A stretch of DNA of 32,000 nucleotides from Halogeometricum borinquense DSM 11551. GTDB lineage: Archaea > Halobacteriota > Halobacteria > Halobacteriales > Haloferacaceae. The stretch lies in assembly GCF_000172995.2 (NCBI RefSeq), contig NC_014729.1, positions 1,860,001 through 1,892,000 of the forward strand. The letters are read 5' to 3'. Every line of letters starts with the position of its first letter. The stretch's first letter is position 1. Positions 6,080 through 25,498 of this stretch are shown in pieces. Under the pieces are notes generated by a model that was given only the letters and a program-made list of their open reading frames with translations, had not been told where the DNA came from and ran no database searches. The position numbers and the translations under genes were made by a program.

Positions 6080-6143
6080 GATGGGACGGACTACGTCAGC
6101 AACGACAAAACGTTGCACAGATATTGTATCGAACCCGGAACGA

Positions 6144-6365
6144 ATGACGGTCGAAATCGTCTCCCTTGTCACGGATGTAAAAGGGTGTCAACCGATGGAC
6201 CTCGAACCGCTCTCGAACGTTACGGATCCGGATGCACTGGAAAACTTGATTCGAGAAACGGCGGCAGGCGAGTTCGAGATCGGATTTGACTACGAAGGCG
6301 GACGGCTCTCAATTTCGTCGGATGGAACTATCGAGTTCGACCTGTCTGTGGACCGCTCGACCTAA
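6144..6365 (+). CDS. Stand-alone HalOD1 (halobacterial output domain 1) protein
   Basis: MTVEIVSLVTDVKGCQPMDLEPLSNVTDPDALENLIRE...FEIGFDYEGGRLSISSDGTIEF: the characteristic HalOD1 pattern (xxELPPLyxxvDPDALdxLf ... F.y.g..v.v). The ORF is open from 6081. Confidence 0.7.
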   Translation: MTVEIVSLVTDVKGCQPMDLEPLSNVTDPDALENLIRETAAGEFEIGFDYEGGRLSISSDGTIEFDLSVDRST

Positions 6366-6486: not shown

Positions 6487-6888
6487 CTACGGCTCATAAT
6501 GGCTGACGTGCTCCGGTTTGATCGAGATCATTACGCGTTCGGTCTGGATGGGGTTGGGATACTCGTCTTTCCCCATATACCGCTTTGACATCTCGTCGAT
6601 CTGCTCGCGTGCGCCTTCTGTGGTCATCTCGTCAACCTCTCCCTGAACTGAAAGCATCCGGTAGGGATTGTCCGGATCTGTCATACTGATGGCGACTCGC
6701 GGGTCGTTTCGGATGTTTTTCTCTTTTCGGCGGCCGCGTTCGGTGTTCACTAACAGCCGGTCCGCGTCGACGTCGTAATCGATCCACACTGGCGTCACGT
6801 GTGGGCTTCCATCCGGCAACAGCGTCGATAGATGCGCAAATGTCTGTTTCTCGAACAAATCTTGGAAGTCTGCCGGGATTGATGCCAT
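6487..6888 (-). CDS. Pyridoxamine 5'-phosphate oxidase (PPOX) family / F420-dependent-like protein
   Basis: 133 aa. FAHLSTLLPDGSPHVTPVWIDYD...LLVNTERGRRKEKNIRNDPRVAISMTDPDNPYRMLSVQGEV. Confidence 0.8.
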   Translation of the reverse strand: MASIPADFQDLFEKQTFAHLSTLLPDGSPHVTPVWIDYDVDADRLLVNTERGRRKEKNIRNDPRVAISMTDPDNPYRMLSVQGEVDEMTTEGAREQIDEMSKRYMGKDEYPNPIQTERVMISIKPEHVSHYEP

Positions 6889-7103
6889 AGTGAATATAGG
6901 TGTGAAAGCTACTAATACGCACTTACAGCATTCTGGTAACTACATTCGGGGTTGGATTCGTGGGAGGATCTATTTCGTTCGCAGAGTATTATTTTCTCGA
7001 CGGTTTGGTGCCCATCTTCTCTGTTTACTCGATCCGAACACACGCGACGCGGTACTTGTCAGTCGTAGTTTCGGAGTCGTATAAGGCGGAGAGGTTGTGA
7101 ATT

Positions 7104-7187
7104 ACGGTCGGAGCAAGCTCCTCTCTAGCTCAACTCCTCCTTGTGAACGTCATACTGAACTCACGCGGTACGCGAGCGACAGAGCGC
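7104..7187 (+). repeat. Left direct repeat (attL-like)
   Basis: acggtcggagcaagctcctctctagctcaactcctccttgtgaacgtcatactgaactcacgcGgtacgcgagcgacagagcgc. It matches 10212-10295 except G/T at one position. It is preceded by a degenerate copy (7086-7103) of the tRNA-3'-like stub seen at 10190-10211. Confidence 0.9.
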
Positions 7188-7211
7188 GGACGCTTTCGGA
7201 GTTGGTGCATC

Positions 7212-7511
7212 GTGAGTCTGCTCGACCGACTTCATGAGGAGTACGAGTCCGATGGTTCGCTCGTCCTGTTCCGCTGTACCGAGTGTGGACAGACAGCGAT
7301 GAGTCTCGGTTCACTTCACGCGCACTGCGAGCAGCACCGCGGCTACACGCGCTTTGGTTTCCAGATACCGTTCACGAGAACCTCACCAGCGAACTTTGAT
7401 CAGCTCATGGAGTTAACGGAGGTACTGCGAGTTGAGGAGACGTCCACGATTTCGCTCGCGGACGTGGAGGGGTTGCAGAATACCAAACCGTACGTTTCAT
7501 TCGCGGGCTGA
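7212..7511 (+). CDS. Small C2H2 zinc-finger protein
   Basis: FRCTECGQTAMSLGSLHAHCEQH fits F-x-C-x2-C-x12-H-x3-H, including the conserved Leu. The ORF is open from 7143 (inside the repeat). GTG 7212 (VSLLDRLHEE) is the likelier start, but this is uncertain. Confidence 0.55.
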   Translation: MSLLDRLHEEYESDGSLVLFRCTECGQTAMSLGSLHAHCEQHRGYTRFGFQIPFTRTSPANFDQLMELTEVLRVEETSTISLADVEGLQNTKPYVSFAG

Positions 7512-7657
7512 TCAGGCTCCATTTTCAACGACTATATCAACCCTCAATATAGATACGACAAATAGATATTATTCCATATTCACTAACCAATGTTAATTGA
7601 TTTCATTTCGGTATTTATTTATCCTGACATTTAGTCATCTAGTTGGTACTCTGATAT
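7512..7657 (+). promoter_or_regulatory. Strongly AT-rich intergenic/promoter region in front of the four-gene cassette
   Basis: About one-third G+C by eye. Contains several TATA-like strings (tatttattta at 7612-7621, catttag at 7628-7634) 25-45 nt before ATG 7658. Confidence 0.35.
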
Positions 7658-8113
7658 ATGAGTGATCTAACGAGAAGAAATGTGCTGAGTATTATGGGAA
7701 CAACCGGACTCCTGACGATGGGCACTGGAATCGGTGCTGCGAAGCCCGACACCTATCCTACCGTTGACGATCTCGGTCCCTTCGAAGACATGACGGTCGA
7801 TCAAATGGCTGCTGGTGCTGCGAAACATCCTAATCAGGACCGTATCGCTATCGTCACCGCAGCGTTTGGTGACGGCATTCAGCTCTACATCGCAGACGGC
7901 ACTCGAAATCTCAGTGACACGCCCGAGACAGTCTACCAGATCACCCAGGACGCTGTGGCTGGCGTGTACGAGCCAGAGTGGAAAGACGGGAATCGGCTCG
8001 AATACGTCATGGACTTCACGCGATACACGCGGAAGATAACCCCATCGTACGTTGTTCTGGATCACAAAACTGTGACGGAGAATGTCCTTGACGAAGAGGA
8101 GGGGGATGACTAA
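7658..8113 (+). CDS. Tat-secreted hypothetical protein (151 aa)
   Basis: MSDLTRRNVLSIMGTTGLLTMGTGIGAAKP is a twin-arginine signal. The mature part is acidic with a C-terminal EEEGDD. No family recognised. Confidence 0.65.
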   Translation: MSDLTRRNVLSIMGTTGLLTMGTGIGAAKPDTYPTVDDLGPFEDMTVDQMAAGAAKHPNQDRIAIVTAAFGDGIQLYIADGTRNLSDTPETVYQITQDAVAGVYEPEWKDGNRLEYVMDFTRYTRKITPSYVVLDHKTVTENVLDEEEGDD

Positions 8114-8595
8114 TGGCGTCTCTCCCATTCCCCGTTCCGAGTGGATTCCCTTTCGACCTGTGTACACCAACCCCCAATGGAACACAACTGTGCGTTCAGA
8201 CCGGCAGTATTCAAGAGAACATTGGCGAACCGCGAGACTGTAACGATGGTCAGACTCCCCCACTTGTCTCAGTCGATCTAACCTACCAGGAGAAGACTAT
8301 CTCACTCGGTGACGCTGAGGTACTCGTCGAGAATTCCATATGGATCGGTATCGAAGAGGACCTGAATGCAGTGTGGGTGGGTGAACCGAAGAGTGGCTCC
8401 TGCTACCGCCATAACTTGAATAATATTGATCCTACCGCTGCTCTCGATACTGTACTTAAGAAGGCGGGGGATGCAGCAGACGCCAGTGTCAGAGACCTTG
8501 GTATGAACCCCAACAGCGGCCCTGGCCAAGTCTTGGCACTAATCATCATGGTGGTTCTATTCCTCATAGCTGACGGGGCCCCAGATCCGGTTTGA
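8113..8595 (+). CDS. Hypothetical Cys-containing protein with a C-terminal TM anchor (160 aa)
   Basis: The start overlaps the upstream stop (TAATG at 8111-8115). Contains 4 Cys. The C-terminal hydrophobic segment VLALIIMVVLFLIA is followed by DGAPDPV. No N-terminal signal peptide is seen. Confidence 0.55.
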   Translation: MASLPFPVPSGFPFDLCTPTPNGTQLCVQTGSIQENIGEPRDCNDGQTPPLVSVDLTYQEKTISLGDAEVLVENSIWIGIEEDLNAVWVGEPKSGSCYRHNLNNIDPTAALDTVLKKAGDAADASVRDLGMNPNSGPGQVLALIIMVVLFLIADGAPDPV

Positions 8596-8642
8596 GATCT
8601 GGAGCATAGGCTTTAGATATATTCACAGCTATTTTACATTCA

Positions 8643-8960
8643 ATGGCACTGCTTCGAAATCTCAAGCCAAAAGAAATTGGTGGGTTGATTCTCGCATTGT
8701 TCGGACTGTTACTTTTGCTCTTGGGATCGAACTCACTACTGATGCAAAGTACACTGGTGTTTCTAGGGTTGGTAGGCTTCGCATCGCTACTGGACTTGCC
8801 GTTTCCTCGGCACCATCTTCTTGCCCCTCTGTCACTGGGGGCAGTGGCTTTCGCTATCGTCTCATACCTTCAAGTGGGACTTACTGTGGGGGGAACGGCA
8901 ATCGCTATCCTTGGGATCGCCATTGCATTCATGTATGGACGGAGACAGGAGTTCCTATGA
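8643..8960 (+). CDS. Hypothetical small membrane protein (105 aa, about 3 TM)
   Basis: IGGLILALFGLLLLLLG / LVFLGLVGFASLL / LSLGAVAFAIVSYL...AILGIAIAFMY. A hand-counted 60-nt sample at the 5' end is 43% GC. Confidence 0.6.
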   Translation: MALLRNLKPKEIGGLILALFGLLLLLLGSNSLLMQSTLVFLGLVGFASLLDLPFPRHHLLAPLSLGAVAFAIVSYLQVGLTVGGTAIAILGIAIAFMYGRRQEFL

Positions 8961-9367
8961 CATCGTATCCAGATACTGGATCACGATGGTGGTACGGTGT
9001 TGCGCTCCAGTTGGTAGTCGTAGGAGCGGTCTGGATTGCGTGGGGGACGGTTTGGTTGCTCGGTGTCGAAAGTGCCGGTACCCCTCCGTCGCTCCTGCCT
9101 GCTAACGACGCTGTTGAGATTCCATTTCTCCTAGCGAGTGTCTCCACGGTGTTGTTGATCTTTGCACACTACGTCTTGACACCTGTCTTCAGTATGGGCT
9201 TGTATCTCGACAGCAAGCACGTATCTGCGAACAATGGTGGCAGGTCCCTATTTCGATGGATGTACGCGGCGGTGAGCGTGATACATTTGCTCTCGTTGCT
9301 CCTGCCGGTGATCCAATTCGTGACGCTTCCCGCAGGCGGAGTGTACTTAATTAACAGACACAAATGA
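8957..9367 (+). CDS. Hypothetical small membrane protein (136 aa, about 4 TM)
   Basis: ATGA start/stop overlap with the preceding gene (8957-8960). Hydrophobic segments: WWYGVALQLVVVGAVWIAWGTVWLLGV, FLLASVSTVLLIFAHYVLTPVF, MYAAVSVIHLLSLLLPVIQFV. Confidence 0.6.
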   Translation: MTSYPDTGSRWWYGVALQLVVVGAVWIAWGTVWLLGVESAGTPPSLLPANDAVEIPFLLASVSTVLLIFAHYVLTPVFSMGLYLDSKHVSANNGGRSLFRWMYAAVSVIHLLSLLLPVIQFVTLPAGGVYLINRHK

Positions 9368-9517
9368 GAAACCACAATCAAATGGACATCTCCCTTTTGT
9401 ACTCCGGGAGCCGACTCCCAAGCTGTGTGCCGCCCCGACAGTACGTTACCAATCGCGGCACCTCACTGTTCTCAGAATAACTCGGAGGAACTTCCGAGAA
9501 GAGCCTACTTCCGGTGG

Positions 9518-10140
9518 CTATAGCGAAACCTCTCTCATCGACCTGATGATGCTCTCTTCTGACGGTGCTGCGAGGTAGGGCTCGATTGCGTCGTAACTGC
9601 TCCAACCGCCGCGGGCCATCACGATCCGTGGTGAAATTCTCCCCTCGACGAGCAGGTGGTGCGCCCAGCAGCGGCAGAGATCGTGACTGGAGATGCGCCG
9701 GTAGCCCTGATCGCCTGTATAGTCTGCGGCGGCATCGGCAGCGCGGTCAACCTACGTCTGGACGGTCCGCTTCGAGCGTTGGGCGATAGAGTCAGTCGGT
9801 CCGATCTCGTTGTCGGTGTTCTGGACGTAGCGGTTGATCTGCGCCTCGAGGTTGATCGGGTGCCAGGTGTCACGCTGCTTCCCCCGCTCTGACTGGTCGT
9901 GTCTTTTCCCGCGGTGACTTCGAGTTTGTAGTGACGGCTGTCGGTTCGTCGAGAGATGTCGTTGGGTGTAGGTGTAACGTCGACAACTTCGGCGTCGCAG
10001 TGTTCGGCTTCCGAGTCCGGAACGTACCGGAGGCCGTCAACAAGCTGGTGAACGGCGGATTCAGCGGCGTTACCCCCGCGCTTGGACGGCGCGAGGCTCA
10101 CGCGCAGCACCTCTGCTGGCGGGGCGGTAACGTGAGATAA
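9518..10140 (-). pseudogene. Tyrosine recombinase/integrase pseudogene (N-terminally truncated, one frameshift and one in-frame stop)
   Basis: The C-terminal frame reads KQRDTWHPINLEAQINRYV...RSKRTVQT*VDRAADAAADYTGDQGYRRISSHDLCRCWAHHLLVEGRISPRIVMARGGWSSYDAIEPYL (HxxR box, GGW...Y catalytic Tyr region). TAG at 9752-9754 sits where Trp is expected. The upstream part (...AEVVDVTPTPNDISRRTDSRHYKLEVTAGKDTTSQSGG) is in a different frame, with the junction at 9878-9886. No SAM-like N-terminal domain remains. Confidence 0.75.
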
Positions 10141-10189
10141 GCGTAGAGGTGTCCCTATATATAGGGTGCCGAAGGAATTAAATTCGGAG

Positions 10190-10211
10190 TGAGGTCGGAG
10201 GGATTTGAACC
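10190..10211 (-). other. tRNA 3'-end-like stub (T-loop/acceptor look-alike), not a functional tRNA
   Basis: tgaggtcggagggatttgaacc is near-identical to the 3' end of tRNA-Trp (tggggtcggagggatttgaacc at 10324-10345). The T-stem does not pair and there is no 5' acceptor strand. Confidence 0.6.
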
Positions 10212-10295
10212 ACGGTCGGAGCAAGCTCCTCTCTAGCTCAACTCCTCCTTGTGAACGTCATACTGAACTCACGCTGTACGCGAGCGACAGAGCGC
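10212..10295 (+). repeat. Right direct repeat (attR-like)
   Basis: 83/84 identical to 7104-7187. Confidence 0.9.
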
Positions 10296-10315
10296 TCGCT
10301 CGTTGGTGAGTTCAG
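10263..10315. other. Two-tier hairpin just downstream of the tRNA-Trp 3' end
   Basis: Outer 10-bp stem ctgaactcac (10263-10272) / gtgagttcag (10306-10315). Inner 7-bp stem gcgagcg (10280-10286) / cgctcgc (10293-10299) with loop acagag. It straddles the right repeat boundary. Only the left arm is present in the 7104-7187 copy. Confidence 0.6.
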
Positions 10316-10323
10316 AGTAGAAG

Positions 10324-10501
10324 TGGGGTCGGAGGGATTTGAACCCCCGATCGACTGATATCTCCGGTGTGCGCCTCGGAACTCCAGAGGGTCGTCAACA
10401 CGACCGATGATCAGTCAGTCGCTCAGTATATCAGTCTGGAGTTTCGTCCCGGGCGCGTTGCCTCTGGAGTCAGTCGCCATGCCGGGCTTGGCCACGACCC
10501 C
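10324..10501 (-). tRNA. tRNA-Trp (anticodon CCA) interrupted by a 104-nt intron
   Basis: The reverse complement folds as GGGGTCG-TG-GCCA-AGCCCGGCA-TGGC-G-ACTGA-CTCCAG / 104 nt / A-TCAGT-CGATC-GGGGG-TTCAAAT-CCCTC-CGACCCC-A. This is a complete cloverleaf (74 nt mature) with no encoded CCA. A long intron in tRNA-Trp is a known haloarchaeal feature. Confidence 0.9.
10360..10463 (-). ncRNA. tRNA-Trp intron with C/D-box-type guide elements for 2'-O-methylation of C34 and U39
   Basis: GACTGATAT-A-CTGA is complementary to ATATCAGTC at the intron/3'-exon junction, and the 5th nt upstream of CUGA pairs with U39. TGACGA-CCCTCTGGAGTT-CCGA is complementary to GACUCCAGAGG, and the 5th nt upstream of CCGA pairs with C34. 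The C-type boxes are degenerate (GGGACGA, UUGACGA). Splice junctions are good to +/-2 nt. Confidence 0.7.
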
Positions 10502-10556
10502 GCTCTGCATCTCTTCGTATGGCGATTCGGCATAAAGGAATTTCGATTGGGAGTCG

Positions 10557-10781
10557 TCAGTCGCGGTCGGTCTCGGCCCACTCGCAGTCCTGGCATTTGT
10601 AGGCCGTGACGAACTCCGTGACGCTCGGCATGTAGCCCACCGAGATGACGTTGCCGTCGCACTCCGGGCAGTCCCGGTCTGCATCCTCGATAGACTCGGC
10701 TTCGAGCGGTTTCTCGCCTTCGACGAGTTCAGCCAGTCGTTTGGGCGTCACCATCCGTCCTTCGACGACGCGGTTACTCAT
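10557..10781 (-). CDS. Small zinc-ribbon protein (CPxC...CxxC), 74 aa
   Basis: MSNRVVEGRMVTPKRLAELVEGEKPLEAESIEDADRDCPECDGNVISVGYMPSVTEFVTAYKCQDCEWAETDRD. Four Cys in two CxxC pairs. Acidic. Confidence 0.65.
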   Translation of the reverse strand: MSNRVVEGRMVTPKRLAELVEGEKPLEAESIEDADRDCPECDGNVISVGYMPSVTEFVTAYKCQDCEWAETDRD

Positions 10782-10866
10782 ACGTCCGTGAATGGCAGGG
10801 ATCGTGGTAAGTCCTCCGCGTCACGCGTCGGAGGCTGAAGTCAGTAAGAGAGAAACGAACGTCGGG

Positions 10867-12302: not shown

Positions 12303-12626
12303 TCACTTCCACGGATTCGAGACTAACTCGGCTTGGACCCCCGGCCCGATTTCGATCCGGCAATCGGTCCGTGGGCGAGCGATACAGCACAAGACGTAGC
12401 CCGATTCGATATGTCGGGTCTTCAGCGCACGCGGTGGGCGGTCGTAGCTGATGTTCCCATCGATCAGTCGGCCGACGCAGGTCGCACATGCGCCCGTTCG
12501 ACATCCGAACGGGAGGCTGATATCTGCCGATTCGGCAGCTTCGAGGATTGTCTCGTCCTCGCTTGCTCGTGTCGTCTCTTCGCGGCCGCTCCGCCGCGTG
12601 AGCGTGAGAGTGTGACGGGAGGCCAT
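12303..12626 (-). CDS. Plant-type [2Fe-2S] ferredoxin (107 aa)
   Basis: Start at ATG 12626 (MASRHTL...). CRTGACATC (C-x4-C-x2-C) plus the downstream YVLCCIARP Cys. The ORF-track 143-aa version extends into the upstream gene and is not used. Confidence 0.85.
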   Translation of the reverse strand: MASRHTLTLTRRSGREETTRASEDETILEAAESADISLPFGCRTGACATCVGRLIDGNISYDRPPRALKTRHIESGYVLCCIARPRTDCRIEIGPGVQAELVSNPWK

Positions 12627-12630
12627 CGCG

Positions 12631-14025
12631 CTACTGCCAGACGTCGCTGGTACAGTCGCCGTCCGGCCAGCGAATCTCGTGGGCGCGCGCCGGTCCCGTG
12701 GCGACCTCGCCGAAGTCAACCAAGAAGTCCTCATCGAGAGTCAACGTCCCTTTGCGCGGGTTGACGTCGGCTTTCAGCATTACCGATCCCTTCTCGGCCA
12801 TTTCGGGGAAGAACTGGTTATCCCACGAGGAGTACAGCGATGTGGTCCAGTAGAGGCGCTCGCCGTCCAGCGAAAGCTGTAACATCTGTGGCCCAGCGAC
12901 CAACTCCCGGTCTTGGACCGTGCGGATATCGCCGAAGTATCCGCCAATCGAAATCGAGTCAGCGCGGCGCGGCGACTTCGGATCGGAGATATCGTACATC
13001 CAGACCTCGCCGTGAAGCCAACTCCCACCGAACAGGTAGCGGTCGTCCATCGAGATGAGAATGTCAGTCGGCAGCGCCGGAACGGGCATGTCCCAGTCGT
13101 CGAGTTCGCGGCTCTCGAAATCGATGACCTTCTCGGCGTGATACCGGTCGTTTTCCTCCCAGAAGTGGAAGATATTCGATGAGAGCGCGGCGTTGACGTA
13201 GCCGTGGGTCGATTCCGGTGTGTGCAGAAAGCGCGTTTCCAGTGGGATGAGCCCTTCCTCGCCGAGATCAATCGTCTGTTCGAGTTCGTGTTCTTCCCAG
13301 TTCCAGAAGTTGAGTCGGTGGCCATACTTTCCTTCTTCGACATCCTCCATATCGAATCCGGGTTGGTAGGTCGCAGGTGCGGCCCATTCCGAGGAGACCA
13401 TCACGTTATGCCGGGGTTGATACCAGAAGTCGTAGTTGAAGTCGATCTCGTTCGGTGGATCCCATCGCCCCTTGATCTCCAAATCATCGCCCAGTTCCAG
13501 AAATCCGCCGGGTAACTCCCCGTCGGCGTTCCCCAGCATGCTGATGACGATATCACCGTCGGGAATACAGTGGGTGGTGTGCGGCGCTGAAAGATCGTAT
13601 TCGTGAACGGCATCAGGTTCGATCACGCGCTCGATCTGCGGATTCCGACGATTCTTCGTGTCGATCACGTGCAGGCGTGAGGAACGGTTGCCGGGGACGA
13701 TGAGGTACCGGCGCTCCAGACCGCCGATATGACACGATGAGGAGCAGGCATTCCAGCCGAAGTGATGGAGTTCGTCGCCCCTATTGGGCATCTCGACGCG
13801 GTTGATGATCTCCTGGTAGGTCTCAGAGTCCGGATCAACGTCCACGACCGCCATGAAATCCGGAGCGTCGATATCTGTCCCGACGTACAGCCCCATTACG
13901 TAGGCGACCGATTCCGGCTCCGATTCTTCGATAGCGGCCTGCGGGGTCGCATACCCCGGTCCTTCGACCTCGTGATGTTCGTGTCCGTGCGCACCTGACT
14001 CTCCCGGTGATTCAGTATCACTCAT
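12631..14025 (-). CDS. Selenium-binding protein (SBP56) family protein / methanethiol-oxidase-like
   Basis: 464 aa from MSDTESPGESGAHGHEHHE. GPGYATPQAAI...VAYVMGLY...DFMAVVDVDP.SETY..I...EMPN.GDELHHFGWNACSS.CH...RRYLIVPG.RSSRLHVIDTK is the hallmark SBP56 N-terminal series. No signal peptide. Confidence 0.85.
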   Translation of the reverse strand: MSDTESPGESGAHGHEHHEVEGPGYATPQAAIEESEPESVAYVMGLYVGTDIDAPDFMAVVDVDPDSETYQEIINRVEMPNRGDELHHFGWNACSSSCHIGGLERRYLIVPGNRSSRLHVIDTKNRRNPQIERVIEPDAVHEYDLSAPHTTHCIPDGDIVISMLGNADGELPGGFLELGDDLEIKGRWDPPNEIDFNYDFWYQPRHNVMVSSEWAAPATYQPGFDMEDVEEGKYGHRLNFWNWEEHELEQTIDLGEEGLIPLETRFLHTPESTHGYVNAALSSNIFHFWEENDRYHAEKVIDFESRELDDWDMPVPALPTDILISMDDRYLFGGSWLHGEVWMYDISDPKSPRRADSISIGGYFGDIRTVQDRELVAGPQMLQLSLDGERLYWTTSLYSSWDNQFFPEMAEKGSVMLKADVNPRKGTLTLDEDFLVDFGEVATGPARAHEIRWPDGDCTSDVWQ

Positions 14026-18449: not shown

Positions 18450-20612
18450 TCAAAGACTATCTAAGTCCAGATCGTCACTCCACTGAAGTTGACCATTTAC
18501 GAGTAATGGGATGTTTTCCAGATCCAAGAAGTCATTTAGTTCCTCTAAACTGAGTGTAAACGAATCAACCGAACCGGAACCGAGATAATGAGTCTCGACA
18601 CTCGGAAGCAACGGTATTACGAGCCCACACATTCCAACGTGGCTTCCCGGATATACACGATAATCTACATTGAAACCCTCTGTTGTCCGGGTGATGACAC
18701 ACGTGTTAGGATATAAACCGTCACTCTGCGCAACTGCGAGTCCACCGTCACCGAGGACAATATAGCTGTCACCGACGGCGTTCTCACCGCGGACAAGTCC
18801 AAGTGCACTACGAATCGGAAATCCTTGATTCAGCAACCGAGCAAGCATCGAGCCGACCTCTACGGCACTACTGTTCACAACATCTTCGAGCGTGACGATA
18901 CCGGCGATAGCACCCGCGTTGATCAGGTGCATCCCCTGTTCGTACGACCGGCAGGCGTTGAGTAAGAAGGCGTCCATCCCTACATCGGACAGTGTCGAGG
19001 CGTCCAACGTCCCGTCGGAACACTGGAATCCGTCGTTGTCGATGTGGCCGATGTAGTGGAAGAAGTCCGTCTGTGTGGCGAGGGCCTCGCGGAGTTCGTC
19101 TTTCGTCAGTTCGTACTGGACTTGCACGTCGAACGGAAGCTTTTCGCGCGACCCGTACACCGCTTCTACGTCCTCGCGCTCGTCTGCCATCCGCGGGTCG
19201 TTGCAGACGACGGTGATACCGATATCACCCTCCGTCGGCGACCGATACAGACGATTGCGGTACGCTTGCAGGGATGCTTTGCTCGCCCCGATGGGCGTCC
19301 CGTCACCCAACCACGCCTGCTCGAGCGAATCCGTTTTCTCGGGTTGGACGTAGCTTCGTTCGGGTAACGATGCAGACTGCGTCGCGCTCCGCGTAAACCC
19401 GGCGTTGGGGGTCTGCGGCGACGACCGCAGGAAGGCATCGACTGCCTCCGCCTGTGTCGTCGAACCCGCCGACGGTTTCGTGTGTGGCGTCCGAACGATT
19501 GCCAAGTCGTTTGCAACGAACGGAAGCAGTTCGACGTTCCCCGGCGTCGGCGTCACGTGCGTCGTGAGTTTCCACTCGGGAACGTGCCCGGCGACCGTCT
19601 CGTACGGAACCTGTAGGTAGGCTTCGACCTGTTCGGCCGTGGGTCGGTCGTACAACGCGGCAAAGTCGAGATCAAGGTCCGATTCGACCGCTTGCCGTTC
19701 GTGCAACTCGACCTGATAGTAGCCTTCCGTTCGAGTGAGACAGTCGAGGAAGAACGTCTGCTTCAGAACGCGCTCGACTTCCCGCTCGTACCCCGCGGTT
19801 GTATCGAGGTCGTATGTGAATCCGCTGTCAGTGCGAAGTCGCGGCGTGTCGCCTTCCACGACGGTTGCACCGAGATAGTACGCTAACGGTGCCGCCACGT
19901 ACACGTGCCGATACGTCGCCGGCAGTTCGAGCGTGATGCCCGTCTCCGGCGGTGCCAAATCTGGCGGTGCTTTGAACTGCTCGCCGCGTTCGATAAGCGG
20001 CGGATGCCCGCGGAGTGTGGGATACGAGCGTTCGGGCGACGTCGATTTCAATGCGGACCCGAGAAGCGACACCGCGCGCATCATCGAACGCGGGTCGTCG
20101 GGTGTCGTTATCGTCGCTGCCGGTCGCTTGTGGTGTGACCGCGCACCGACGAGAACCTCCGTTTCCTCGTCGAACGAGATGGTCGTCTGCGTCGCATCGG
20201 AAGTTATCGTCACCGGTGCGTTGACGCGTACGTACGTCTTCACCGGGGCGAACAGTTCGAGACTGTACGTCGCGCGCGGGAACGACTCCGAGGCGAAGTG
20301 TTCGGTCTGGCCGAGCATCTGTCCCTCGTCGTCGCGGATGCAAACTGAGACGACCGTCTGGAGTTCGAGCTGATCCGTTTGGAAGCGAACTGCGGCGTCA
20401 GCGGGGAACCAGAACGCACTCGGGTCGGTGGGTTCCGGGTCGATCACCGAAGGTGTCGAAAGTTCGAACTGATGACGCTCTATCGGGTCGGTAACCACGA
20501 CTCCGTCACCCCCGGATGCGGCGTCGAGCGAGAGTTCGAGATACGTCTCTGAACTATCAAATGACGGCGAACTCTCAGAATCCCCGAACCCTTCCATCAT
20601 CTTTTCAGTCAC
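18450..20612 (-). CDS. 720-aa protein: unknown N-terminal ~460 aa plus a C-terminal CHAT (caspase-like cysteine protease) domain
   Basis: GITVVCNDPRMADEREDVEAVYG...LTKDELREALATQTDFFHYIGH(523)IDNDG...GMDAFLLNAC(554)RSYEQG...AGAIAGIVTLEDVVNSSAVEVGSMLARLLNQGFPIRSALGLVR follows the CHAT consensus. His codon at 19044-19046, Cys codon at 18951-18953. Confidence 0.75.
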   Translation of the reverse strand: MTEKMMEGFGDSESSPSFDSSETYLELSLDAASGGDGVVVTDPIERHQFELSTPSVIDPEPTDPSAFWFPADAAVRFQTDQLELQTVVSVCIRDDEGQMLGQTEHFASESFPRATYSLELFAPVKTYVRVNAPVTITSDATQTTISFDEETEVLVGARSHHKRPAATITTPDDPRSMMRAVSLLGSALKSTSPERSYPTLRGHPPLIERGEQFKAPPDLAPPETGITLELPATYRHVYVAAPLAYYLGATVVEGDTPRLRTDSGFTYDLDTTAGYEREVERVLKQTFFLDCLTRTEGYYQVELHERQAVESDLDLDFAALYDRPTAEQVEAYLQVPYETVAGHVPEWKLTTHVTPTPGNVELLPFVANDLAIVRTPHTKPSAGSTTQAEAVDAFLRSSPQTPNAGFTRSATQSASLPERSYVQPEKTDSLEQAWLGDGTPIGASKASLQAYRNRLYRSPTEGDIGITVVCNDPRMADEREDVEAVYGSREKLPFDVQVQYELTKDELREALATQTDFFHYIGHIDNDGFQCSDGTLDASTLSDVGMDAFLLNACRSYEQGMHLINAGAIAGIVTLEDVVNSSAVEVGSMLARLLNQGFPIRSALGLVRGENAVGDSYIVLGDGGLAVAQSDGLYPNTCVITRTTEGFNVDYRVYPGSHVGMCGLVIPLLPSVETHYLGSGSVDSFTLSLEELNDFLDLENIPLLVNGQLQWSDDLDLDSL

Positions 20613-23644: not shown

Positions 23645-23861
23645 GCACTTTAGGCTTCCCTAAAAACAAAAAGAGGTTTCGGTTTTCGGACAGAAAACAG
23701 GACCATCGGTTCGCTCAACCCCCGAGACAGCGCGGGTGAACACAAATAAACGCCACGTAGCAACTCGCGTTCGTCACCGGCGTGTCATCGCTGTCGCCCG
23801 ATCCGCCGATCCTCTCAAAAGCCCTTGTCGGGGCGAACGGGTTACAGGTTGTTGCGGCGAT

Positions 23862-25013
23862 TCACTCGCGTACGAACGACTCGATGCGGTTCAGTGCCGT
23901 CTTCAACTCGGACATGCTCGTCGCATAGGACACGCGGAGGTGGCCCTCTCCGCTCTCTCCGAAGACGCGGCCGGGAACGAGCGCGACTTTTTCCTCTTGG
24001 AGGAGGGCTTCCGCGAACGCCTCGTCGTCTTCCCATCCCGGTGGACACTTCGGGAAGACGTAGAACGCGCCCTTCGCCTCGAAGCAGTCCATCCCGATGT
24101 CGTTGAACCGGGAGATGACGAACCGGCGTCGCCGGTCGTAGGCACGGCGCATCTCGTCAACGGCGTCGTCACACGACTCGATGGCTTCGAGGGCGGCGTA
24201 CTGCGCTGTCGTCGGCGCCGAGAGCATCGTGTACTGATGGATCCGGTTCATCGCATCGATGATGGCGGCGGGTCCGAGCGCGTACCCGAGTCGAAGGCCG
24301 GTCATCGCGTAGGCTTTCGAGAACCCGTTGAACACGACGGTCCGTTCGCGCATCCCCGGGAGTGTGGCGATGGAGACGTGGTCGTCCTCGTACCGGAGCG
24401 CCGCGTAGATTTCGTCGGAGAGGACGAACAGATCGTGTTCGCGCGCGAACTCCGCCACGTCAGCGAGTTCGTCGCGGGTCATCACCGCACCGGTCGGATT
24501 ATTCGGGTAGCAGAGGACGAGCACGTCCGCTTCTGCCGCTCCCGCGCGTTCGAGGTCGTCGTACCCGACCGCAAAGTCCGCTTCGGCGCGTGTGGGGACC
24601 GACAAGGCCTCACCGCCCGCGAACGACACCGTCGGTTCGTAGGAGATGTACGACGGTTCGGGGACGGCGACGATATCGCCCGTATCAACGAGTGCGCGCA
24701 TCGCCAGGTCAACGGCTTCGCTCGCACCCGCGGTGACGAGTATCTCGTCGTCAGGGTCGTACTGCTGGTCGTAGCGCTCGACCCGTCCGGCGATGGCCTC
24801 GCGGAGTTCTCGCATCCCCCGATTCGAGGTGTAGGAGGTGCGACCGCGTTCCAGCGAGTCGATAGCGGCGGTTCGTGCGGCCCACGGCGCAGAGAAGTCC
24901 GGTTCTCCGACACCGAGCGAGATGACATCGTCCATCTCCTCTGCGACCTCGAAAAACCGGCGGATACCCGACGGTGGCGTCTCGCGCGCGAGTGTCGAGA
25001 GATAGTCACTCAT
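23862..25013 (-). CDS. Class I/II pyridoxal-phosphate-dependent aminotransferase (aspartate aminotransferase-like)
   Basis: PSGIRRFFE...ISLGVGEPDF..P...Y.SN.G...LR.AI...YPNNPTGAVM...SDEIY...FSKAYAMTGLRLGY (PLP-Lys). Confidence 0.9.
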   Translation of the reverse strand: MSDYLSTLARETPPSGIRRFFEVAEEMDDVISLGVGEPDFSAPWAARTAAIDSLERGRTSYTSNRGMRELREAIAGRVERYDQQYDPDDEILVTAGASEAVDLAMRALVDTGDIVAVPEPSYISYEPTVSFAGGEALSVPTRAEADFAVGYDDLERAGAAEADVLVLCYPNNPTGAVMTRDELADVAEFAREHDLFVLSDEIYAALRYEDDHVSIATLPGMRERTVVFNGFSKAYAMTGLRLGYALGPAAIIDAMNRIHQYTMLSAPTTAQYAALEAIESCDDAVDEMRRAYDRRRRFVISRFNDIGMDCFEAKGAFYVFPKCPPGWEDDEAFAEALLQEEKVALVPGRVFGESGEGHLRVSYATSMSELKTALNRIESFVRE

Positions 25014-25498
25014 GGCGAGAACGTGAGTCGGTCGTCATCATCGCCGTCGCCCATCTCGATGCCGCGGTCCTTGTACGTCTCCATGACGAAGTGTGTGACC
25101 GTCTGCGTCACCTCGGGGATGGGAGCGATGCGTTCGGAGATGAACCTAGATACGTCGTGCATCGAGTCACCTTCGACAGTGAGCGCGAAGTCGTAATCGC
25201 CCGAAACCAAACAGAGCGACGTCACTTCTGGGAACTTGGCGATACGGCGCGAAATCTCCTCGTATCCCGTCTCGCGGTCGAGTTCGACGTTCAACTCGAC
25301 CTGCGCTTGCACGTGTTCTTCGTCCACGCGGTCCCAATCGACGACCGCTTGGTACCCGCGGATGACGCCGTCTTCCTCCAACTCGTCGATGAGTGCTTCG
25401 ACCGCTGCTGCGTCGAGTCCAGTCTGTCGAGCGATGTCTTCTGGGCTCTCACGAGCGTTGCGGAGCAACAGGTCGAGCAGTTCCCGCTTGTCGTCCAT
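25010..25498 (-). CDS. Lrp/AsnC family transcriptional regulator
   Basis: Start at MDDKRELLDLLLRNARESPEDIARQTGLDAAAVEALIDELEEDGVIRGY (HTH), then a RAM/ACT-like domain. ATGA overlap with the aminotransferase start (25010-25013). Confidence 0.85.
   Translation of the reverse strand: MDDKRELLDLLLRNARESPEDIARQTGLDAAAVEALIDELEEDGVIRGYQAVVDWDRVDEEHVQAQVELNVELDRETGYEEISRRIAKFPEVTSLCLVSGDYDFALTVEGDSMHDVSRFISERIAPIPEVTQTVTHFVMETYKDRGIEMGDGDDDDRLTFSP

Follow-up and report, generated by a model that had tools for sequence, protein, structure and literature searches.

We analysed a cassette of four small genes in Halogeometricum borinquense DSM 11551, contained in a 32,000-nucleotide (nt) stretch of contig NC_014729.1 (positions 1,860,001 to 1,892,000; hereafter the window, by which all coordinates without another label are numbered). 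An earlier note, made from the letters of this DNA, had described the cassette as an AT-rich set of secreted and membrane proteins carried as island cargo. The four plus-strand open reading frames (ORFs) lie exactly where that note had placed them, with p1 at 7658–8113, p2 at 8113–8595, p3 at 8643–8960 and p4 at 8957–9367. They encode, in turn, an acidic protein of 151 amino acids (aa) with a predicted signal for twin-arginine translocation (Tat), a Cys-rich protein of 160 aa with a C-terminal membrane helix, and two small membrane proteins of 105 and 136 aa. The feature on which our reading turns is that export signal and membrane anchor are divided between p1 and p2, and that related proteins elsewhere combine the two in one polypeptide.

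The genes are tightly packed. As described previously, p1 and p2 overlap in TAATG (TAA 8111–8113, ATG 8113–8115) and p3 and p4 in ATGA (ATG 8957–8959, TGA 8958–8960). A Shine–Dalgarno-like GGAGG (8098–8102, plus strand) lies within the end of p1, 10 nt 5′ of the p2 start codon, and this motif together with the overlap points to translational coupling of p1 and p2; a similar AGGAG (8947–8951, plus strand) precedes p4. The 146-bp AT-rich region described ahead of p1 (7512–7657) has a GC content of 30.8% and contains two TATA-like boxes, TATTTATTTAT (7612–7622) and TTTAGTCA (7630–7637), which may serve as a promoter. The spacer between p2 and p3 (8596–8642, 34% GC) holds TTTAGATA (8612–8619), centred about 27 nt 5′ of the p3 start codon, and is a possible internal promoter for p3 and p4; this would be consistent with the separate transcription of p4 in metagenome contig L001, where p4 is inverted and lies upstream of p1–p2–p3. 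Shine–Dalgarno-like motifs before p2 and p4, combined with TATA-like boxes approximately 25–28 nt before p1 and p3, suggest two bicistronic units, with predicted transcription starts at about 7645–7658 and about 8643, a view that the displaced p4 of L001 also fits. An oligo-T run at 9395–9398, 28 nt past the p4 stop codon, may be an archaeal terminator, to judge from its sequence.

The cassette has a GC content of 52.3%, compared with 59.1% for the window, and falls inside the 1.7 kb of lowest GC content in the whole 32 kb. A hand count of 43% GC for positions 8643–8702 agrees with our value of 43.3%; the figure of 55% given for the first 60 nt of guaB becomes 51.7% with the ORF start used here, a minor discrepancy. 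GC at third codon positions is 0.51–0.61 in the cassette genes, whereas guaB and the genes for GTP cyclohydrolase III and TrmB range from 0.70 to 0.78. In two close pairs, the ratio of non-synonymous to synonymous substitution rates (dN/dS) is 0.12–0.18 for p1, 0.16–0.23 for p2, 0.35–0.43 for p3 and 0.18–0.29 for p4, and it stays well under 1 for all four at both short and long distances. By this measure, all four are real genes kept under purifying selection. In the public record for DSM 11551, the hypothetical proteins identical to p2, p3 and p4 are ADQ67514/C499_18674, C499_18669 and Hbor_19490. The annotated p3 (Hbor_19480) has 72 aa, too short against the 105 aa found here, and an automatically called version of p1 (P0001, 143 aa) begins after the twin arginines; we prefer the longer starts of both because these are conserved.

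The p1 and p2 families

The earlier note recognised none of the four proteins, and neither do Pfam, NCBIfam, PHROGs or PADLOC, in which searches with all four returned only noise (PglZ, E 0.003; DUF6653, E 0.07). Profile searches of Protein Data Bank (PDB) sequences with p1 and p2, including broadened alignments, found nothing; the broadest p2 alignment retrieved low-complexity helical matches only.

The description of p1 as an acidic Tat-signal protein holds: its isoelectric point is 4.3, and its N terminus, MSDLTRRNVLS, contains T-R-R-N-V-L followed by 21 uncharged residues, in line with the pattern of Tat substrates (S/T-R-R-x-hydrophobic-L and at least 13 uncharged residues). The predicted signal spans residues 1 to about 29. 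The twin arginines (RR) are conserved in all p1 homologues, with KR in locus L030. Of the four proteins, p1 is the best conserved, and its motif FGDGIQLYIA is invariant. AlphaFold2 models residues 31–131 as an all-beta core of nine strands (predicted local distance difference test (pLDDT) 76–90). Foldseek searches with p1 yielded weak local matches to two-blade beta-propeller fragments, none of them significant (E of at least 0.1, best local values 0.3–0.4 or weaker). The best were to TolB (2ojh, probability 0.96), tachylectin-2 fragments (3kif), S9 peptidases and Ph1500, with query-normalised TM-scores of no more than 0.39 and a target-normalised TM-score of 0.53 for 3kif. The nine-strand core and a motif, DRIA-VT-AFGDGIQLYIADG, that resembles a PD40 blade recall the propeller blades of TolB/PD40 proteins and tachylectin-2; Pfam gave no PD40 match, and the viral folds of BFVD contained no match for p1. 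As the core has only about 100 residues, a closed propeller would need oligomerisation or the participation of p2.

The description of p2 as a 160-aa protein with four Cys residues and a C-terminal anchor is likewise accurate. It has a single hydrophobic segment (residues 133–160), an isoelectric point of 4.05 and no N-terminal hydrophobic segment or signal peptide. From the N terminus, its parts are a beta-rich domain in which four Cys residues are conserved (C-x9-C-x15-C-x53-C), an amphipathic helix, the C-terminal membrane helix and a short tail that is rich in Pro and Gly and has no basic residues. A profile search of 1.84 billion representatives returned 42 matches (clusters at 50% identity), which defines a rare family, and every match has the C-terminal membrane helix with a short Pro/Gly tail. 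No Pfam domain was detected in any of the 38 members scanned. The Cys count is even in 30 of these 38 domains, mostly 4 or 6, and shifts in pairs (4, 6, 8). Even counts fit disulfides and thus an extracytoplasmic location of the p2 domain, and the Cys spacing together with the pairwise variation does not fit an iron–sulfur motif. No redox domain from Pfam or NCBIfam occurs in the cassette. The p2 tail does not fit a PGF-CTERM/archaeosortase sorting signal, having neither an NCBIfam match nor basic residues.

Members of the p2 family occur in four architectures. Some are short and lack a signal, like p2 of the window. At least ten have their own RR signal and a spacer of 85–100 aa in front of the Cys-rich domain. 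Two, P0021 from a metagenome and P0026 (WP_139210801) from Natrinema salaciae, are fusions in which an RR-bearing p1, p2 and the membrane helix form one chain. Others are long forms without a signal (P0036, P0038, P0039 and P0044). The short signal-less form follows an RR- or KR-type p1 in all eight readable contexts (the window, L001, L006/L012, L008, L024, L027 and L030); the long p2 of L023 also follows a p1, the signal region of which is lost at a contig end, and the genes at L025 and L026 encode an RR-type p2 and have no p1. A p2 without a signal beside a p1 that has one, an RR-type p2 where p1 is absent, and fused forms together place the p2 domain outside the cell. The same complementarity of signal and partner, with the fusions, speaks for p1 and p2 acting as one unit.

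An alternative is that there is no exported complex: p1 would be exported alone, and p2 would be an ordinary tail-anchored protein with its Cys-rich domain in the cytoplasm, perhaps binding metal. The missing signal peptide and the short tail without positive charges are what classical tail-anchored proteins show, and a signal is entirely lacking from the long p2 forms and from the pair on a Haladaptatus plasmid (described below). Against this, at least ten members place the same domain behind an RR signal of their own and two fuse it behind an RR-bearing p1, and one domain is unlikely to work on both sides of the membrane; Cys numbers that change in pairs are also expected of disulfides. We consider a cytoplasmic p2 distinctly unlikely.

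The spacers of several RR-type p2 proteins (P0035, P0042, P0045, P0047, P0049, P0050, P0058 and P0060) share a D/E-x-E/D-W motif. It resembles EPEW of p1 (residues 104–108), the Trp of which is invariant in the p1 family, and the spacer motif might be a much reduced vestige of p1 that is in contact with p2.

Genomic contexts, membrane partners and mobility

Among 5.8 billion proteins, we found six relatives of p1, 11 of p2 and two of p4, and the cassette recurs in at least eight haloarchaeal lineages. The order p1–p2–p3–p4 is the same in Halorubrum sp. Atlit-28R, on megaplasmid phalar01 of the halophilic archaeon DL31 and in noisy metagenome copies of phalar01. Between DL31 and Atlit, similarity is limited to a block of 1,869 bp with 94.9% identity, which extends from approximately 120 bp upstream of p1, the putative promoter, to 17 bp past p4. 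We rejected the reading of frameshifts at L002–L005 as real pseudogenes, because phalar01, of which these loci are noisy copies, has intact genes. A further copy, on pR1SE2 of Halorubrum lacusprofundi, is truncated by an insertion sequence (IS) element. Such a copy agrees with a report that pR1SE captures host DNA (PMC10818511), and we rejected the idea that the cassette is a core gene of pR1SE plasmid vesicles, given that the pR1SE2 copy is truncated passenger DNA (PMC10818511).

Further lineages have other arrangements. L024 has an RR-bearing p1, p2, a p3-like gene and a Peptidase_M48 gene; L027 has the same series with an integrase gene ahead of it, and L030 has a KR-type p1, p2 and a p3-like gene. 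L023 consists of a p1 with its 5′ end cut by the contig, a long p2, membrane proteins and M48. In Natrinema (L021), an integrase and a small winged helix-turn-helix protein precede a p1–p2 fusion, a p3-like gene and M48, with type IV secretion system (T4SS) pilin-like genes nearby. On the Haladaptatus plasmid, an 860-aa protein of SO2946-like jelly-roll repeats ends in a p1-like domain and is followed by p2 and then a small membrane protein. L008, a metagenome lineage, has p1–p2–p3 without p4; its cassette (9468–10855 of that locus) is strikingly rich in Lys, Ile and Asn codons and in AT, in a GC-rich chromosome, between TctA and CorA and with no integrase in view. At L025 and L026, neither p1 nor M48 accompanies the RR-type p2 gene, and the next gene is for a polytopic membrane protein. 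In L026, a 141-aa protein (12346–12771 of that locus) encoded about 5 kb downstream of the p2 gene weakly matches HalC8_like_N, the halocin C8 immunity domain, probably by coincidence.

The order p1–p2–p3 is kept across lineages that are only 12–60% identical in sequence, gene order persists on unrelated replicons, and the earlier view of the genes as one unit stands. Integrases at L021 and L027, the T4SS-pilin-like genes of L021 and the IS-flanked plasmid loci are further mobile contexts. The earlier note had also pointed to haloarchaeal viromes and plasmids as places to look. Plasmid copies exist (DL31 phalar01, pR1SE2 and the Haladaptatus plasmid), but viral ones were not found: a tblastn search of sequenced viruses (INPHARED) had no match even at E ≤ 1, and IMG/VR had none. 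In 241 million metagenome records there were only six loci, none of a new type. Two scans of GTDB genome contigs returned nothing, even for the source species, and that collection seems to be without these loci.

Both p3 and p4 are basic and polytopic, as had been described, with four hydropathy peaks in p3 and three to four in p4; we predict four transmembrane helices for p3 and three to four for p4. Proteins of 104–109 aa resembling p3 are encoded 3′ of p2 in eight lineages. Seven of them, profiled for hydropathy, have four peaks at near-identical positions despite sequence identities of only 12–37%; the eighth (L030, 108 aa) was judged by eye only. By contrast, p4 is confined to the clade of H. 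borinquense, DL31, Atlit and L001 (tblastn, 38–42% identity) and is absent from L008, L021, L023, L024 and L027. A Peptidase_M48 gene occurs near the cassette in four independent lineages (L021, 9381–10436; L023, 4216–5088; L024, 1839–2987; and L027, 2937–3992 of the respective loci). It comes directly after p3 in L021, L024 and L027, the place that p4 takes in the window clade; in L023 it is a few genes further downstream. This proximity, given here as bare counts, suggests a functional link with the module, perhaps in the processing or quality control of the anchored protein. We rejected p4 as a degenerate M48 protease, as it has no similarity to one and no HEXXH motif.

The earlier note had proposed a toxin and immunity system like that of a halocin. 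In such a system, p1 would be a Tat-secreted toxin or toxin domain, and p2, alone or with p3 and p4, a membrane immunity factor that sequesters p1 at the surface of the producer. A small acidic, predicted Tat substrate encoded directly ahead of membrane proteins has this appearance. The Haladaptatus locus, with a p1-like domain as the C-terminal module of a multi-domain protein and p2 next, has the layout of a polymorphic toxin, and the M48 protease of four lineages could process a precursor. Even the p1–p2 fusions would be compatible, because the halocin C8 precursor ProC8 is itself a single Tat-exported fusion of HalI immunity and HalC8 toxin parts that is later cleaved (bioRxiv 10.64898/2026.07.27.741052). 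The two systems are alike in being haloarchaeal, Tat-exported (a prediction for the cassette), encodable as two parts in one polypeptide, one of them Cys-rich, and patchily distributed in connection with mobile DNA. They differ in that the Cys-rich part of the cassette is membrane-anchored and has about 100 residues, rather than being a 76-residue peptide, and in that the cassette has no halR, halT or halU neighbours.

The proposal gained no positive evidence. None of the four proteins matched TIGR04449 (halocin_C8_dom) or PF22862 (HalC8_like_N) at E ≤ 0.1 in NCBIfam and Pfam, none of the 38 p2-family members did, no match to HalI or to any toxin family was found, and there are no hal-type ABC exporter or regulator genes nearby. 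The selection on p1 and p2 is purifying rather than diversifying, and p1 is the most conserved member of the set, unlike the proteins of diversifying toxin–immunity pairs; the p1–p2 fusions are membrane-anchored, and RR-type p2 proteins occur without p1. We therefore regard a halocin-like role as unlikely.

The claim that the cassette is island cargo is borne out by its flanks. On the right, an intron-containing tRNA-Trp(CCA) gene (10324–10501, minus strand; intron of about 108 nt; Rfam RF00005, 45.7 bits; anticodon read from the sequence) is the apparent integration target; ARAGORN missed this gene, which the Rfam model detects. Introns of haloarchaeal tRNA-Trp genes are known to encode a box C/D guide RNA. 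Next to the gene lie a 24-nt copy of its 3′ end (10188–10211) and an 83-bp direct repeat (10213–10295), and the left end of the islet (7083–7187) has a degenerate copy of the tRNA 3′ end (about 7083–7104) and the other 83-bp repeat (7105–7187). The two repeats are identical at 82 of 83 positions, and the similarity continues further to the left at approximately 70% identity by pairwise alignment; they are not fragments of the tRNA-Trp intron, a possibility rejected for lack of similarity. Between p4 and the right-end repeats, a tyrosine-integrase pseudogene of the short type of about 200 aa (about 9518–10120, minus strand) has a frameshift and an in-frame stop; its three-frame translation includes HDLCRCWAHHLL and GGWSSYDAIEPYL. 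The features of a tRNA-targeted integrative element are all present: a tRNA gene, repeats that include its 3′ end, an integrase, here a pseudogene, and a GC content of 52–54% against 59% for the window.

The relatives of this integrase are ‘site-specific integrase’ genes on haloarchaeal plasmids (46–66% identical). Intact ones on Haladaptatus plasmids have about 201 aa and are likewise of the short, catalytic-domain-only type; none was found in the sequenced-virus collection. These observations bear on the virus envelope or superinfection-exclusion module that the earlier note had proposed as its other option. The islet could be a remnant of a pleolipovirus-like provirus in which p1 and p2 are a split spike or envelope protein and p3 and p4 virion membrane proteins, possibly kept for superinfection exclusion. 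The envelope block of haloarchaeal pleomorphic viruses consists of a small polytopic membrane protein and a C-terminally anchored spike. By gene type rather than by alignment, the cassette resembles such a block, with its signal-bearing, C-terminally anchored exported protein, small polytopic proteins and an adjoining integrase at a tRNA gene; the low GC content and the direct repeats would also suit a provirus. However, the cassette proteins are far smaller than known spikes, and we found no match in PHROGs, among sequenced viruses (E ≤ 1), in IMG/VR or in BFVD. The islet is only 3.1 kb in length and has no replication or NTPase gene, its integrase relatives sit on plasmids, and other copies of the cassette occur on megaplasmids, in regions like integrative and conjugative elements (ICEs) and in plain chromosomal contexts, the pR1SE2 copy being truncated passenger DNA. 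With no positive evidence from any of these searches, a viral origin seems very unlikely.

Two other H. borinquense strains (L010, CP048739; and L011) have the same islet. DSM 11551 has an extra 134 bp at 10188–10321 that CP048739 and JAXCMF01 lack. This block comprises a second copy of the 3′ end of the tRNA, then the 83-bp repeat and a further 26 nt; it may be left over from another, tandem integration or have arisen by local duplication. The integrase of L011 (10577–11143 of that locus) has a different lesion, a frameshift just before the region of the catalytic Tyr, and such differences between strains imply that the integrase is decaying. DSM 11551 and L011 have all four cassette ORFs intact. 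L010 (CP048739.1) has intact p2, p3 and p4, but its p1 has a 1-nt deletion in the codon for His57 (about 8872 of that locus, equivalent to about 7828 of the window), outside a homopolymer, which could be real decay or an assembly error. Pseudogenisation of homologues, which the earlier note had named, together with absence of expression, as refuting its reading, is seen in part, for p1 in one of three H. borinquense strains.

Taken further, this could mean that the cassette has no function and is decaying as the passenger DNA of a dead element. The integrase has decayed independently in two strains, p1 is frameshifted in CP048739, the pR1SE2 copy is truncated and the family is extremely rare. 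Yet the low dN/dS of all four genes, the four intact frames beside a broken integrase in both DSM 11551 and L011, and the retention of p1–p2–p3 order at 12–60% identity argue against it, and we give this explanation little credence.

A proposed export and tethering of p1 and p2

Our preferred reading, which we hold tentatively, is that the products of the cassette assemble into a small complex, held on the outer face of the cytoplasmic membrane, and that haloarchaeal mobile elements carry the cassette as cargo. A single mRNA would yield both p1 and p2, their translation being coupled through the overlap and the GGAGG motif in front of p2. The all-beta core of p1, possibly two propeller-like blades, would bind the Cys-rich domain of p2 in the cytoplasm, and the pair would be exported through the Tat translocase on the twin-arginine signal of p1, with p2 as a ‘hitchhiker’. 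The C-terminal helix of p2 would then stay in the membrane and hold the complex outside, where the four Cys residues would form two disulfides. The four-helix p3 would be an obligate membrane partner of the p2 anchor, and p4 a clade-specific extra membrane subunit, in place of which four sister lineages have the M48 metalloprotease gene beside or near the cassette. The reality of the genes, their protein architectures, the match between signal and partner, the fusions and the mobility of the cassette are shown, and the physical p1–p2 complex, its co-export, the disulfides and the contact between p2 and p3 are what we infer.

The simplest mechanism, by analogy with formate dehydrogenase-N of Escherichia coli, is that Tat exports both proteins together and that the untagged one carries the anchor. 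In that enzyme, FdnG has the Tat signal and its untagged partner FdnH the C-tail (PMC10924467). The layout corresponds: in the cassette, the predicted signal is on p1 only, and p2 has no signal and a single C-terminal transmembrane helix. The genes are also adjacent and probably co-translated, and relatives exist with signal and C-tail on one polypeptide. In contrast to FdnGH, the cassette has no redox cofactor motifs and no sequence or fold similarity to it, is archaeal and borne on mobile elements and has a small four-helix protein instead of a cytochrome b subunit; its complex formation and Tat dependence are predictions. A survey of Tat-dependent tail-anchored proteins noted how difficult it is to detect bioinformatically those signal-less C-tail proteins that leave the cytoplasm along with a Tat-dependent partner, and none was encoded beside a Tat substrate among the Streptomyces coelicolor candidates examined (PMC10924467).

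Several points weigh against this account. The 860-aa p1-bearing protein of Haladaptatus and its p2 both lack a recognisable signal, as do the long p2 forms (P0036, P0038, P0039 and P0044), so hitchhiking on the twin arginines of p1 cannot be the whole story. The p2 tail lacks the basic residues typical of anchors with the N terminus outside and the C terminus inside. The structure model of p2 is poor (pLDDT 51), and Foldseek matches to this low-confidence model were discarded as meaningless; the propeller-like assignment of p1 relies on Foldseek matches at E ≥ 0.1 and a PD40 model that was unmatched. The frameshift of p1 in one of three strains implies that the cassette is dispensable there, and literature searches on locus tags and pR1SE2 found no paper that mentions the cassette genes. 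Finally, a role in recognition or exclusion is deduced from architecture alone.

That role is the least certain step of the tethered-complex reading. Because p2 is always C-terminal and membrane-proximal and the N-terminal parts vary, p2 with p3 can be read as an anchor module, the p2 domain resembling a generic anchor or stalk, that displays different heads; candidates are p1, the 860-aa jelly-roll-repeat protein and other N-terminal domains. For such a module we favour a role in surface recognition, adhesion or entry exclusion, to the benefit of the element, and not that of a diffusible toxin. A bolder proposal, possible but doubtful, is that p2 and p3 form an undescribed modular anchor of haloarchaeal mobile elements with interchangeable heads, in which split p1 and p2 are exported by cofactor-independent Tat hitchhiking and the passenger carries the anchor. 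The anchor module may serve cell–cell recognition or entry exclusion in plasmid or ICE transfer.

If true, the split p1–p2 pair would be the first archaeal example of cofactor-independent hitchhiking with an anchored passenger. The split, fused and own-signal forms of p2 provide a natural three-way comparison in cultivable haloarchaea, through which this kind of hitchhiking is directly testable. The analysis also defines two protein families without a database model, p1 and p2, and a conserved p1–p2–p3 triad whose mobility spans chromosomes, megaplasmids and ICE-like elements, the high-identity regions of Deep Lake among them. An effect of the module on surface recognition or exclusion would bear on the spread of haloarchaeal mobile elements; should it have no detectable effect, it is simply a rare orphan cassette.

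Other genes in and beside the islet

A 122-aa ORF (7143–7511, plus strand) starts inside the left direct repeat and has a weak zf-C2H2 match below the cut-off (Pfam E 0.005–0.01). Its tblastn matches are in L010 and L011 only, that is, only in H. borinquense, and its coding status is doubtful. To the left of the islet, a low-GC stretch contains a gene for a HalOD1-domain protein (6081–6365, plus strand) that scores 54.6 bits against the NCBIfam model ‘DdfA disk-determining factor’ (cut-off 70). Strain L011 has a gene of the IS605 OrfB/TnpB type (6634–7431 of that locus) between its HalOD1 and PPOX genes, an insertion that the window lacks. Further to the right, two long ORFs are without a Pfam match at E ≤ 1e-5. 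One, of 720 aa (18450–20612, minus strand), is among the genes called in L010 and L011; the other, of 486 aa (23736–25196, plus strand), may be no more than a shadow ORF.

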